A DNA stretch of 8,537 nucleotides, taken from IMG/VR virus record IMGVR_UViG_2681813314_000007; one strand, 5' to 3'. Of the stretch, positions 820-4,300 are shown in pieces. The number at the start of each line of letters is the position of its first letter. The first letter of the stretch is position 1. Made by a program: the position numbers and the translations under genes. The notes beneath the pieces are model-generated. The model did not search any database. It was not told where the DNA came from and saw only the letters and a program-made list of their open reading frames with translations. Source of the stretch: a virus (lineage: Duplodnaviria > Heunggongvirae > Uroviricota > Caudoviricetes).

Positions 820-1554
820 TCATTGCCCGGACTTCCGACAAATCCCGGCAACCATATCCCGGTGCTTGTTCAGCTCCCGCAGCGCGGCGCAGACTCGCTC
901 CCACTTCTGGACATGATTCTTCGCCCTACGCAGTTCGCGATTTGCCATATGCAGCGATGGCAAAATCAAATCATCTTCTCGCGTTGCAGTAAACGATGGC
1001 AGCGACTGCACAATGTCCGCCACAGTTTCTGTTTTAATATCTTCCTGTGTTGCATCTTTCTGTACCGGTAACGCAACACCGGCTGGCTGAGGAAAGGCTT
1101 TACCATCGGTTTCCGCTACCGATTCAACTTTCGGCTCTGCTGGTAAATTATCACCTGGTATGCAGTAACGAATTTTACCGTTCTGGTTTACGCGAATCAG
1201 ACGACCTTTGCTGATTGCCATTGCCAGCGTTGAAGCAACTTTGCGGGATGTTGTACCGAACAGCGTAGCCAGTTCATCCGCCGTTTGTGGTCCGCGTTGT
1301 TCAATCGTCGCGGTTAAATCGCACTCTGAGATTTTCGCTTCTGTTGCCGTGGTGGTTTCTTCTGGCGCTGGCTGTTCCTGCTGAACGTTGTTATCAGCCA
1401 CACGCCAGGTGTATACGCTTTTATCAACGAAGCCAGCCTTTTTCAGTTCCCACAGCTCGTTCAGTACTTCTTCACGACTGATATCAAGTCGCGCAGCCAG
1501 CTCTACCGACGTGGCTTTTCCCATCGCTTTCAGTGCGTCAAAAACAGTCTCCAT
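820..1554 (-). CDS. Conserved prophage protein with winged-helix-like N-terminus (DUF1627-like), downstream of replication genes
   Basis: 244-aa ORF with SD GGGAGG about 6 nt upstream of the ATG at 1554. It is co-oriented with, and 33 nt downstream of, the P-like gene. The N-terminus ([27 protein letters not shown]) looks like a wHTH. Family name is from memory. Confidence 0.7.
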
Positions 1555-1587
1555 AAATTTCCTCCCGGTAAAAAATCACTTCTCAAC

Positions 1588-2253
1588 TCAAACAAAACCA
1601 GCCGCTTTCCGGCGTTCATATTCCTGTTTCAGCAACTCAATTGGCGTTGGCCCCGACGGGCGTTTGGGGGCCGCCAGTTGTCGCCGGACTGGCGGAACGC
1701 TCAGGCCGTTACTAACATGCTTTGCCCATTTCGTCAGTTGCCGTTCTGCAAGCCGTTTTAATTCCCCTTCGGTCATCTGGCGCTCAATCCCCTTTGAACG
1801 CATCTCGAGGCAAATGTGATACAGCACAGGCTGAGACCACGGGTACTTATCACTTCCGTCGTATCGCCAGGACTCATTGCGCCAGCGGCGGTACTCCTCC
1901 ATCACAGCATCCACCGTCAGACCGAATGGATTGGCTCCGCTTTTCGAAATCAGTGCCACAAACTCAGCCAGGTCCGGAGGCCATGTTTCACCCGCCCGGC
2001 AGCGGTCCATGCACTGGCGGCAGACCTGCCGGATTTGCTGCTCAGTCATCGCGCCAATCTGTGCAATCCAGAGCTTCGAAGGTGCGGCCCCGTTCTTCTG
2101 GATCCAGCGGTTCGAATAAACCACCCCCATGAGTTCCCACAGCTTCCAGGCCGTTTCCGTCGCTGATAAATCCGTTTTCACGTTCCCACTGCTCACGTGC
2201 TGCCCGAATTTCCTGAACTGCCCGTGATGCGGTGCCACCTGGTGCTGCTGCAT
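1588..2253 (-). CDS. Replication protein P-like (lambda P family helicase loader)
   Basis: 221-aa ORF. The middle and C-terminus resemble lambda P (YPW...TDAELRRKA-type segment; C-terminal basic tail ending G-F/S-V). Strong SD AAAGGGG 6 nt upstream of the ATG at 2253. This start overlaps the O-like ORF by 212 nt; alternative starts at 2130 or 2049 would reduce the overlap but lack a comparable SD. Confidence 0.8.
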   Translation of the reverse strand: MQQHQVAPHHGQFRKFGQHVSSGNVKTDLSATETAWKLWELMGVVYSNRWIQKNGAAPSKLWIAQIGAMTEQQIRQVCRQCMDRCRAGETWPPDLAEFVALISKSGANPFGLTVDAVMEEYRRWRNESWRYDGSDKYPWSQPVLYHICLEMRSKGIERQMTEGELKRLAERQLTKWAKHVSNGLSVPPVRRQLAAPKRPSGPTPIELLKQEYERRKAAGFV

Positions 2254-3082
2254 GGTTTACCCCTTTGCTGACTGGTTTAACCTGCGCCCTGACGTGATTT
2301 ACGTGACGGGCGAATTTCTGCTCCCACTGAATCTGCGTAAACACTTTCCCCTCCGCTGCCCAGTAGTCCCGGAAGGCGGCAAGTTCAGCAGGTGTAAATT
2401 CTGTCTCCGGCAAAGCCATCCCCCACAACGCAGCCCGTCGTCGAAAATCCCGTGACGGATACCAGCTATCGCTCATCGGGAATTTTCCGATGGGTTCGCT
2501 CAGGCCATACAGGAATACAGGGGGGGCTGCCTGTAACGACAAAACTTCCTGCTCACTGGTCGGAGCACTCTCGCGTGCGTTATGTGTGGGGTTTAGATCT
2601 TTGGGTTCCTTTGGGTTCCGTGATCCGTTTTTGGGTGTCTTTGATGGAAAATTTGGGTGTCTTTGGTTATTTTCCATGCAGCTAAGAGTTCTGTTTTTGG
2701 GTCTGTTTTGTGCTGAAACATAACCATTTTCGGTACTGTTTTTATTAACAGCACCAATTTTACCCACCTTTAAAGACTCCCGTTTTTGGGTGTATTCAGG
2801 CTCGGCAACACTTTCTTCTACACCGATAAGTCGGTACACCACAATTTGCTTTGTTCTGCCTTTTCTCTCACCGGTATCAACAATTAACCCAATCTCCATC
2901 AGGTGTCGTAAGCTGTCCTGCACAGTCTTTTTGTTCAGTTCCGTTACTTCTGCCAGTGCAGATACAGACGGGTATGCACACAAATCGGCACCGCACATAT
3001 CAGCAAGCCAGGTCAATACTGACTTACTGGATGAACTGCCGGTTTTCACCTTTTTAGCCCATCGTAGTGCATCGATACTCAT
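2042..3082 (-). CDS. Replication initiator O-like protein: N-terminal HTH DNA-binding domain, low-complexity linker, DnaT-like C-terminal domain
   Basis: Start chosen at the internal ATG 3080-3082 (MSIDALRWAKK...), which has SD CAGGGG 5 nt upstream; the track's longer ORF would overlap the upstream gene by about 100 nt. The C-terminal region (PIGKFPMSDSWYPSRDFRRRAALWGMALPE...FRDYWAAEGKVFTQIQWEQKFARH) resembles the primosomal DnaT C-terminal domain. The linker is encoded by the iteron array. Confidence 0.8.
   Translation of the reverse strand: MSIDALRWAKKVKTGSSSSKSVLTWLADMCGADLCAYPSVSALAEVTELNKKTVQDSLRHLMEIGLIVDTGERKGRTKQIVVYRLIGVEESVAEPEYTQKRESLKVGKIGAVNKNSTENGYVSAQNRPKNRTLSCMENNQRHPNFPSKTPKNGSRNPKEPKDLNPTHNARESAPTSEQEVLSLQAAPPVFLYGLSEPIGKFPMSDSWYPSRDFRRRAALWGMALPETEFTPAELAAFRDYWAAEGKVFTQIQWEQKFARHVNHVRAQVKPVSKGVNHAAAPGGTASRAVQEIRAAREQWERENGFISDGNGLEAVGTHGGGLFEPLDPEERGRTFEALDCTDWRDD
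2600..2797. repeat. Candidate prophage replication origin: iteron array TTTGGGT(G/T)(T/C) x6 plus a 70-bp AT-rich segment, inside the O-like gene
   Basis: Read directly. Core copies start at 2600, 2610, 2630, 2652, 2696 and 2785. The 14-nt TTTGGGTGTCTTTG occurs at 2630-2643 and 2652-2665. AT-rich stretch at 2711-2780. Architecture parallels the lambda origin, which lies inside gene O. Confidence 0.6.
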
Positions 3083-3605
3083 ACGAACCCCTGGCAGACA
3101 TTTGTTTATCTGCAAAGTAATATTGGTATTGCTGACGATACGCGTGCTTGAAAGCAATAGCTTTTTCTATAAGCTCGTCAGTCTCACGTTCCACAACAAC
3201 TGGATCCGCAAAAAGCAGCCCGGACTCCACCACATCGCCATATTCTTTGTTTAACCCGGCGATCATGTACGTAATGCTTTTTCCGTCAGTAATTTCACAA
3301 TACAATCTGAAATCGCTGATCCGGATAGCCTCCATAATTGCCGGAATCAGCGCCGTGAATTTGTCACGCTTATCTCTGGTGTCGATAGCTTTCCAGCGTT
3401 CGAATATCTTCACCCGGTTAACGCCCAGCGCCCGTTGATCAACCTCGCCATCATTAAACGTGACGCGTTGAACATCGATGTTCGGGCGTTCTTTCAGAGC
3501 CCAGAATGCTTCCGTGATTAATATCGTCGCCTGCTCCTGTGTCATTCCTGGTCGGCATACCCAGGTATCCAGAGCCTCACAAACCTGTTCAGTGGTGATT
3601 TTCAT
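3054..3605 (-). CDS. YdaT-family protein (occupies the cII position between the Cro-like and O-like genes)
   Basis: 183-aa ORF. Its start overlaps the dicC-like stop by 17 nt, suggesting translational coupling. An internal motif (DKFTALIPAIMEAIR) resembles YdaT-family proteins of Rac-type prophages. Family assignment is from memory. Confidence 0.7.
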   Translation of the reverse strand: MKITTEQVCEALDTWVCRPGMTQEQATILITEAFWALKERPNIDVQRVTFNDGEVDQRALGVNRVKIFERWKAIDTRDKRDKFTALIPAIMEAIRISDFRLYCEITDGKSITYMIAGLNKEYGDVVESGLLFADPVVVERETDELIEKAIAFKHAYRQQYQYYFADKQMSARGSYEYRCTTMG

Positions 3606-3816
3606 TGTTCAACCGCCCCGCCCGCTTTGCCTTACGATATTCGTCATAAACTTTGGGGTCGTACTGAAGTTCCCCGCCGGATGCCTCTTGCAGGCGCATC
3701 GCGCGACCTTCAGGAACCAGTTCCCCCCATGCAGCAACGCTTGCCAGCCTAACTCCTGCGACATTGGCAAGCTTTGTTTTGCTGCCAAAAAACGCTATAG
3801 CATCAATTTTCAACAT
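3589..3816 (-). CDS. dicC: DicC-like Cro-type regulator
   Basis: 75 aa, divergent from the dicA-like gene. SD AAGGGG 6 nt upstream of the ATG. Sequence (MLKIDAIAFFGSKTKLA...GRLNNENHH) matches my recollection of DicC. Confidence 0.8.
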   Translation of the reverse strand: MLKIDAIAFFGSKTKLANVAGVRLASVAAWGELVPEGRAMRLQEASGGELQYDPKVYDEYRKAKRAGRLNNENHH

Positions 3817-3892
3817 ATCGAACCCCTTAGATTTTCCTAAGGAAACTAGATCGTAGAGAAACCTAAGTCAAGAAAAATTAGAATTACCTAAT
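3817..3892. promoter_or_regulatory. Divergent promoter/operator region of the dicA-like/dicC-like switch
   Basis: Perfect palindrome CCTTAG-attttc-CTAAGG at 3825-3842, with further TTAG/CTAAG half-sites at 3862-3868 and 3878-3892. Leftward promoter candidate on the minus strand: -35 TTGACT (3871-3866), 17-bp spacer, -10 TAGTTT (3848-3843). Rightward candidate: -10 TAGAAT at 3879-3884, only 8 nt before the dicA-like ATG. Confidence 0.55.
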
Positions 3893-4300
3893 ATGAAAAA
3901 CGAAACCTTCGGTGCTCGCCTCTTATACAGGCGAAAAAAATTAAAACTGTCTCAGGCCGCATTAGGTAAGCTGGTCAAAGTGGCTCACGTAACAATTTCT
4001 CAATGGGAAAGAGATGAAACACAGCCAGCGGGGAAGAGATTATTCGCACTGAGCCAGGCGCTTCAGTGCTCGCCGACTTGGCTTCTTTTTGGAGATGAAG
4101 ATAAGCAACCAGGCGAACCGATCCCAGATAATCAGCCAGTCAATCTGACAGAAGATCAAAAAGAGTTGCTTCAACTGTTCGACGCACTGCCTGAGTCAGA
4201 GCAAAAGGCTCTGTTGTCAGAGATGCGTGCTCGAGTTGAGAATTTCAACAAACTTTTTGAAGAACTACTCAAAGCTCGCAAAAGAAGCGCAAATAAATAA
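3893..4300 (+). CDS. dicA: DicA-like repressor (Xre-family HTH; CI analogue of Qin-type prophages)
   Basis: 135 aa. N-terminal HTH (LSQAALGKLVKVAHVTISQWERDE). Strong resemblance to E. coli DicA, including the ...FALS.ALQCSPTWLLFGDEDKQP... and ...MRARV.NFNKLFEELLKAR... segments. Confidence 0.9.
   Translation: MKNETFGARLLYRRKKLKLSQAALGKLVKVAHVTISQWERDETQPAGKRLFALSQALQCSPTWLLFGDEDKQPGEPIPDNQPVNLTEDQKELLQLFDALPESEQKALLSEMRARVENFNKLFEELLKARKRSANK

Follow-up and report, generated by a model that had tools for sequence, protein, structure and literature searches.

Introduction

The initiator gene O of bacteriophage lambda has four iterons annotated at nucleotides (nt) 349–433 (ATCCCTCAAAACGAGGGA, ATCCCCTAAAACGAGGGA, ATCCCTCAAATTGGGGGA and ATCCCTCAAAACAGGGGG), with a 40-bp A-rich tract after iteron 4. 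Initiators of the SPP1 and RepA_N types have the origin inside their own gene, and the origin of the Rac prophage of Escherichia coli K-12 is called oriJ; we found no sequence-level description of oriJ in the literature. The replication proteins of the Eru-type Shiga toxin (Stx) phages are stated to be unstudied, and the Stx-phage papers that treat Eru regions mention HTH_36 and YdaT proteins and neither an origin nor iterons. Here we consider an array of direct repeats within an O-like initiator gene on a stretch of 8,537 nt from a tailed phage (Caudoviricetes; IMG/VR record IMGVR_UViG_2681813314_000007). Further in this study the whole stretch is referred to as the window, and all coordinates are those of the window unless another record is named.

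An earlier note on this DNA had proposed that the array is a candidate prophage origin. According to our analysis, the array (2600–2798) is probably the replication origin of a lambdoid prophage of the PPompW type, placed within the linker-coding part of the initiator gene. The basis of this reading is selection acting at the DNA level, an architecture conserved in the family and the identities of the protein domains described below. As a candidate origin, the iteron array in the O-like linker is supported by sequence shuffles, synonymous recoding, the use of three codon phases, 46 relatives and the co-inheritance of repeats with the N-terminal domain. An in-gene iteron origin is the expected arrangement for a lambdoid prophage and leaves the accepted picture of lambdoid replication unchanged. 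The module itself, consisting of an HTH_36 N-terminal domain, a DnaT-type C-terminal domain and a short P-type protein, is common and annotated only generically.

Comparison with described systems

The locus resembles lambda in its gene order (cro, the gene at the cII position, initiator, P-type loader) and in that the N-terminal half with its iterons is exchangeable against the C-terminal half with the loader. The repeats are found midway through the gene, in the part that codes for the linker after the DNA-binding domain, at gene nt 285–483 here and nt 349–433 in lambda. As in ori-lambda and in the Stx phages, they are direct repeats of a partly dyad-symmetric 18–26-bp unit, in which an AAAAC centre separates a C-rich from a G-rich arm (TCCCTC-AAAAC-GAGGGA in lambda). 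The placement of iterons in the O linker in the manner of lambda, which the earlier note had claimed, was therefore found to hold both for the build of the repeats and for their place. Iteron 3 of lambda has an AAATT centre, similar to that of unit U5 described below.

There are also differences from lambda. The N-terminal domain is HTH_36-like and has no match to Phage_rep_O; the C-terminal domain is of the DnaT type, unlike the P-binding domain of lambda O; and no counterpart to the first third of lambda P is present in the P homologue. Further, the units are irregularly spaced (10–56 bp) and several of them are half-sites, and the AT-richest DNA is located inside the array, whereas in lambda it follows it.

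The C-terminal 185 amino acids (aa) of the initiator, comprising the DnaT domain and the tail, and the P-type gene share ~90% DNA identity with YdaU/YdaV of the Rac-SA53 prophage; there, the cro-like and YdaT genes lying upstream also come from the same families. In contrast, the N-terminal domain of YdaU is of the DUF1376 type, and a TTTGGGT array is missing; thus the origin sites of Rac-SA53, if they are in the gene, must differ. G38P of SPP1 and RepA of the staphylococcal plasmid pSK41 show the same general layout, with a winged-helix N-terminal domain, mid-gene iterons and a variable C-terminal domain that recruits helicase-loading proteins of the host or the phage, but they have no significant sequence similarity to the initiator studied here, come from Firmicutes and work with partners of the DnaD/DnaB/DnaI type. 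The three-helix domain of E. coli DnaT that binds single-stranded DNA (ssDNA) is clearly homologous to the one found here, whereas the N-terminal domain of DnaT is absent and the shared domain is fused to a predicted origin-binding winged helix. Hence the protein is not an orthologue of DnaT, and a role in PriA-dependent restart is not expected. Finally, some Stx phages have YdaT/HTH_36 "Eru" replication regions to which the module appears to be related.

Repeats in the O-like gene

The window contains six copies of the heptamer TTTGGGT, at 2600, 2610, 2630, 2652, 2696 and 2785, always on the plus strand and confined to 192 bp (2600–2791); there are no copies elsewhere in the window or on the other strand. 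These are exactly the positions listed in the earlier note. The longer consensus TTTGGGT(G/T)(T/C) ascribed there to all six copies fits five of them, the copy at 2696 (TTTGGGTCT) being one base off. Five matches to this consensus, against 0.53 expected, were obtained in none of 200 shuffles. Both the tandem 10-mer (2600–2619) and the 14-nt repeat (2630–2643 and 2652–2665) pointed out earlier are exact.

The repeats cover codons ~97–161 of the O-like gene. All three codon phases are used for their gene-strand core, ACCCAAA, which is read once as T-Q-K, three times as x-P-K and twice as P-K/N. For synonymous resampling, the amino acid sequence of residues 90–170 was kept fixed and synonymous codons were redrawn in 20,000 trials according to their frequencies in the window's six genes. 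The resampled segments contained 0.74 copies on average and five at most; the observed number, six, which is an ~8-fold excess, was reached in none of the trials. The three codon phases together with the excess over synonymous recoding imply that the repeat is selected as DNA rather than as peptide. In addition, 2603–2662, a segment with four copies that codes for a disordered linker, nevertheless equals the DNA-binding domain in conservation among 46 distinct E. coli alleles.

Many database versions of the gene are truncated or frameshifted, with breakpoints within the A-tract repeats (window 2600–2800; proteins P0001–P0033), and one copy from O157:H7 is split by IS1203 in the region of the DnaT domain (L130:1171–3523). 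Slippage or sequencing errors may be particularly frequent in the array. A protein search with a 104-aa N-terminal query returned nearly exclusively such truncated or frameshifted fragments and added little. Open reading frames (ORFs) called mechanically across the array (2452–2685 and 2490–2723 on the plus strand; 2757..2593 on the minus strand) are unsupported and overlap the well-supported O-like gene.

Iteron units

Alignment of the linker DNA from eleven Enterobacterales relatives yielded a partly dyad-symmetric repeat unit of ~22–26 bp, (A)ACACCC-AAAAAC-GGGTGT(T) on the gene strand. By the repeat, phase and alignment analyses, the array at 2600–2798 (minus strand) comprises about eight units of this family, numbered in gene order. 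U1 (GAATACACCC-AAAAAC-GGGAGTCTT, 2772–2798) is the best-preserved dyad, with 6/8 arm positions complementary; its core is identical in the Edwardsiella, Serratia and Plesiomonas relatives, and its codon phase differs from that of U4 and U6. U2 (GGTGGGTAAAATTGGTGCTGTT, 2746–2772) is badly decayed and was recognized from its alignment to a perfect iteron of the relatives. U3 (ACAGTACC-GAAAAT-GGTTATGT, 2716–2742) is diverged and lies in an AT-rich stretch, and it too has 6/8 complementary arm positions. U4 (ACAGACCC-AAAAAC-AGAACTCT, 2683–2709) has a good left half and a weak right arm. U5 (AAGACACCC-AAATTTT-CC, 2639–2665) is a variant with an A/T-switch centre, and U6 (AAGACACCC-AAAAAC-GGATCACG, 2617–2643), with a good left half only, is the final full unit; both are conserved in all Enterobacterales relatives. 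U7 and U8 are the two half-sites of the tandem 10-mer (GGAACCCAAA twice, 2600–2619), present in the E. coli lineage only; in their place the relatives carry a conserved GGAATCTACCAAGGAACCWTAAAG.

Judged by the lambda layout, with at least three direct repeats after the DNA-binding domain, the window has six exact 7-mer cores in about eight units. The inverted-repeat iteron with an A-tract centre is clear in the relatives, in U1 and in U3, while the average over the window is below the null.

The repeat search also found a perfect 9-nt inverted repeat, ATGGAAAAT and ATTTTCCAT at 2644–2652 and 2669–2677, bracketing U5. Lambda, too, has a palindrome beside its origin.

AT-rich stretch

The stretch 2711–2780, made of U2 and U3, has a GC content of 0.357; the value for the whole window is 0.481 and that for the gene 0.503. 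A GC content this low is found in only 2.2% of the 70-nt segments of the early operon (820–3816), and the minimum of the operon (0.329 over 70 nt) is at 2692–2761. The lowest 40-bp duplex stability of the gene is found within 2711–2760. The stretch is ~1.8 standard deviations below the mean stability of the window and outside its 12 least stable 40-mers, and beyond the last unit the GC content is 0.53–0.59. Thus the AT-rich segment reported in the earlier note is indeed the least GC-rich part of the operon, but it lies inside the array, coincides with two degenerate iteron units and is only modestly unstable. Its interpretation as a separate unwinding element of the lambda kind was rejected because the alignment of the relatives shows it to consist of two decayed units and because its instability is modest. 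By its GC content and duplex stability it is a candidate for the first site of strand opening.

Repeats in relatives of the N-terminal domain

We scanned one genome per bacterial species with the N-terminal-domain alignment and obtained 46 loci with 32–80% identity. They come from Enterobacterales, Acinetobacter, Beta- and other Gammaproteobacteria, Desulfovibrionaceae and one alphaproteobacterium. Complete members have four to nine direct repeats starting 270–300 nt into the gene; two loci with truncated ORFs, L121 and L127, have three or fewer. The spacings are mostly 17–24 or 26–33 bp, and two or three codon phases are used in nearly all relatives. Of the 44 loci that could be tested, 37 have more repeated 9-mers in the 400 nt downstream of the winged-helix region than in any control window of the same locus (median 6 vs 3).

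The repeat sequence is lineage-specific, while its position and spacing are kept. The arms change together by lineage (CACCC/GGGTG, AGTCC/GGACT, GTTCC/GGAAC, GTACC/GGTAC, GTCTCA/TGAGAC, GTGTCA/TGACAC), and in most lineages the palindrome scores are above every random control. Such covarying arms look as would be expected of a binding site for a dimeric winged-helix protein that co-evolves with the protein.

In the Edwardsiella, Serratia and Plesiomonas group, a GC-rich palindrome, CCCCCCTAGCCCCCAAGGGGGAGGGG, stands after the array at the module junction (L001:2990–3020 and the equivalent positions of L088–L092); the window does not have it.

Module exchange

The N-terminal domain of the initiator of Edwardsiella phage EPP-1 is 74–76% identical to that of the window, while its C-terminal half is unrelated (Phg_2220_C). 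The EPP-1 gene has five copies of ACACCC-GTTTTT-GGGTGT, as read on the plus strand of the window, at 26–55-bp spacing. Conversely, the C-terminal exchange cassette of the window (2042–2598, minus strand) has ~90% DNA identity to ydaU of Rac-SA53, whose N-terminal half is unrelated. The homology to Rac-SA53 ends at 2598, and the array begins at 2600.

The same pattern is seen more widely. The C-terminal half is of the DnaT type in the window, Enterobacter, Kluyvera and Klebsiella and of the Phg_2220_C type in the Edwardsiella group; no known domain was found in this half in the remaining relatives. The next gene codes for full-length lambda P in EPP-1, for the short P in the window, for a DnaB-type helicase at three loci and for a DUF6475 protein at others. 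Within E. coli, the DnaT-type half and the short P recur at 81–90% identity behind unrelated N-terminal modules, namely DUF1376 (Rac-SA53), a "replisome organizer" type (L132) and another type (L133). Neither Rac-SA53 nor L133 has a TTTGGGT array. L132 carries eight or more tandem copies of ATGTCACGAC (1627–2001, in the gene of P0145), which end just before the shared junction. A second repeat cluster of L132 is located ~280 bp upstream, inside the region coding for the N-terminal domain.

The comparison of EPP-1 and the Edwardsiella group with L132 demonstrates that the repeats are co-inherited with the DNA-binding domain. From these swaps, and from the end of homology at the edge of the array, it follows that the N-terminal domain with the repeats and the recruiting domain with the loader are separate units of exchange. 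The separate exchange of such units is the classical picture for lambdoid O genes. The mosaic pairing of a DnaT-like domain with a P-type loader, which had seemed of interest in the earlier note, is real; however, it is a standard cassette, which Rac-SA53 and ~17% of the complete genomes of E. coli contain, and not a one-off.

Domains of the initiator and the loader

The O-like initiator gene (3082..2042, minus strand) codes for 346 aa and is supported by its ORF and translation, by Pfam, by the Prokaryotic Genome Annotation Pipeline (PGAP) and by the AlphaFold layout; PGAP names the product "DnaT-like ssDNA-binding domain-containing protein". The AlphaFold model was built on 26 database homologues of the full protein. 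It has an N-terminal winged-helix domain (aa 1–85, 2828–3082, minus strand) with the order H-H-H-H-strand-strand at aa 3–85, presumed to be the iteron-binding domain, followed by a segment modelled as disordered (aa 88–195; predicted local distance difference test 30–37) and by a DnaT-type ssDNA-binding domain that is modelled with confidence at aa 200–266 and delimited as aa 201–267 (2282–2482, minus strand). The repeats therefore indeed fall, as had been claimed, in the linker between a helix-turn-helix (HTH) domain and a DnaT-like domain.

The identity of the latter, proposed earlier with a hidden Markov model search as its check, is borne out by Pfam (PF17948, 61 bits vs a cut-off of 25, E 9e-17) and by Foldseek comparison with 4ou6 and 6aeq, with TM-scores of ~0.9 (0.89–0.92), a root-mean-square deviation of 1.0 Å (0.9–1.1 Å) and 53–58% identity.

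For the N-terminal domain, the HTH_36 (PF13730) score of the window protein is 20.9 bits, below the gathering threshold of 25, while homologues at 32–80% identity score 30–62 bits; it is assigned to HTH_36 because it is homologous to these clear members. Some relatives have weak Pfam matches to DnaD_N. Fold comparison of the N-terminal domain gave phage HTH proteins, including some named replication protein O or GpO N-terminal (E ~2e-5 to 6e-5), and weak matches to the N-terminal domains of staphylococcal RepA initiators (4pql, 5kbj, 4pt7; E 6e-3 to 1e-2). Pfam returned no Phage_rep_O match to the window protein at E≤0.01, and the N-terminal-domain profile gave only generic winged-helix noise against PDB sequences. 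Homology of this domain to lambda O is not claimed, the comparison of sequence profiles being at the level of winged-helix noise.

The loader gene (2130 or 2049..1588, minus strand) directly follows the initiator gene and overlaps its stop codon. Its product matches PF06992 with 59.6–61.2 bits (cut-off 26, E ~1e-16), which confirms the lambda-P type ascribed to it earlier. The match runs from profile position 32 or 50 to 161 of 162, so that about the first third of the lambda P profile is missing, whereas the EPP-1 loader spans positions 1–162. The product has 180 aa if translated from the ATG at 2130 and 153 aa from the ATG at 2049, the start chosen by PGAP and in the Rac-SA53 record. The additional 27 aa of the long form, MGVVYSNRWIQKNGAAPSKLWIAQIGA, are ~70% conserved in Enterobacter and Kluyvera, as compared with ~50% for the overlapping tail of O, and the long form is the one given by PGAP in a Klebsiella record, where the overlap is 89 nt. 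Since these 27 aa are better conserved than the O tail and the long form is annotated in Klebsiella, 2049–2130 (minus strand) seems to be a real dual-coding stretch, and the start at 2049 is probably mis-annotated.

Prophage distribution and circular records

Lambdoid E. coli prophages of the PPompW type match the window at 99.7–100%, and full-length PPompW records in the database are of ~44 kb. The 271 bp around the array are present at at least 95% identity in 907 of 5,426 complete E. coli genomes, in most of which the array is 99–100% conserved.

Two circular E. coli records from one sequencing project contain the segment, with no other replication gene in the feature table of either. NZ_CP148379.1 (8,461 bp) carries cI-cro-ydaT-O-P and cargo; it is 96% identical to window 1365–3730 and has the same six repeat copies. 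NZ_CP148543.1 (15,643 bp) consists of the immunity-replication segment and adjacent prophage DNA. These records, a possible natural hint at replication from the array, may be lambda-dv-like plasmids, products of in-situ over-replication or escape, or assembly artefacts.

Interpretation

By analogy with lambda, the Stx phages and the ssDNA binding of the C-terminal domain of DnaT, initiation at the array might proceed as follows. Transcription from the immunity region, passing through the array, would lead to synthesis of the O-like protein. Its winged helix, probably as a dimer, would bind the better preserved of the units, namely U1, U3, U6 and possibly U4 and U5, and the A-tract centres may bend the DNA into a wrapped complex similar to the O-some. 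The least stable DNA within the array (~2711–2760) would then open, the DnaT-type domain may bind the single strand and/or the loader, and the short lambda-P-type protein would deliver the host DnaB.

Several observations weigh against an origin at this place. We found no experimental work on the HTH_36/DnaT/short-P module in the literature. The half-sites at 2600 and 2610 are not conserved in the nearest relatives, which makes these two copies the least secure of the six. The mean dyad symmetry of the six copies of the window is 0.36, compared with 0.42 for random gene segments; being at the background level, it shows the array to be ragged, and both arms are kept by U1 and U3 only. Nor is the array flanked by a distinct element of strong AT-richness like that of lambda. 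Comparison of the 26-sequence N-terminal-domain profile with lambda O by hhalign gave a probability of 1.9%. Finally, the small circular records could be assembly artefacts.

Some of these observations would fit a relic, that is, a defective prophage with a decaying array that no longer supports replication. Both arms are kept in two or three of about eight units, U2 is badly degenerate in comparison with the relatives, and frameshifts or truncations in the A-tracts affect many copies of the gene in databases, in addition to the O157:H7 copy split by IS1203. However, the O-like and P-like frames of the window are intact, the array is nearly invariant in most of the 907 genomes, its part at 2603–2662 is conserved like the DNA-binding domain, and PPompW prophages are represented by full-length records. 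Moreover, unwinding in lambda needs only two iterons and the adjacent DNA, as the results of Dodson (1986) are quoted in a citing paper. We thus consider decay of this kind unlikely.

The sites might instead bind the O-like protein for control (autorepression, titration or handcuffing, or exclusion of related phages), with initiation elsewhere in the prophage. According to one publication (PMC3349717), iterons of plasmids and of lambda also mediate control and replicative inhibition phenotypes. The missing strong flanking AT-rich unwinding element and the lack of DnaA boxes in the window would agree with such a role. On the other hand, iterons inside the gene are the origin in the best-studied systems with the same layout, lambda and the Stx phages, and those of RepA_N plasmids and SPP1 are also origins. 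Further, the least stable DNA of the replication operon sits within the array, and the 8.46-kb circular record retains the array segment. Taken together, this makes control as the sole role quite unlikely.

The notion that a repetitive peptide (PKNG or TQKR) in a low-complexity linker, or slippage, gave rise to the repeats as a by-product with no DNA function is very unlikely and can be dismissed: although the linker is disordered and the 33-bp spacings of Edwardsiella stay in frame and yield KTPKNG peptide repeats, there are three codon phases in the window and two or more in nearly all relatives, synonymous recoding removes the motif, complementary and covarying arms are meaningless at the peptide level, and the repeat sequence follows the N-terminal domain rather than the composition of the linker.

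If the array is the origin, as we favour, a broader interpretation can be offered tentatively. It is possible that HTH_36 initiators form a large, Proteobacteria-wide family of lambda-O-like origin binders with their own in-gene dyad iterons, that in the E. coli version a DnaT-type domain replaced the C-terminal domain of lambda O together with the O-binding N-terminus of P, and that the 8–15-kb circles are lambda-dv-like plasmids arising in the wild. No description of an HTH_36 initiator family as such was found in the literature. In the proposed E. coli version the initiator itself would keep hold of the melted strand and pass DnaB-P on to it; helicase loading would thereby follow a different route.

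The replication module is present in about one sixth of complete E. coli genomes, including strains of O157:H7, O145:H28 and O111:H8. A probable origin with its recognition sequence would provide a handle on prophage replication, which drives the dosage of toxin genes after induction. Moreover, the order of a winged helix, lineage-specific dyad repeats and a swappable recruiting domain could serve as a rule for predicting origins and their specificity in unannotated prophages.

Neighbouring genes of the early operon

Upstream of the initiator gene, on the same strand, are a YdaT-like gene in the cII position (3605..3054; Pfam YdaT_toxin) and a Cro-like gene (3816..3589; Pfam P22_Cro), both supported also by the annotation in relatives. 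Downstream of the loader gene, a DUF1627 gene (1554..820, minus strand) is the last of the early operon. Transcription of this rightward-type operon from the immunity region runs through the array. Promoter and terminator scans around the array gave no signal above chance.

A divergent DicA/CI-like repressor gene (3893..4300, plus strand; Pfam HTH_3) faces away from the Cro-like gene. The spacer between the two (3817–3892) is the least stable DNA of the window in the stability profile and is presumably the site of the operators and promoters. The repressor is a short DicA-like HTH_3 protein of 135 aa with no match to the peptidase S24 domain; hence its induction by RecA-stimulated self-cleavage in the way of lambda CI is unlikely. 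The YdaT-family gene and the beginning of the O-like gene have 29 nt in common (3054–3082), and the joining of the cro-ydaT-O-P string by overlaps suggests translational coupling.

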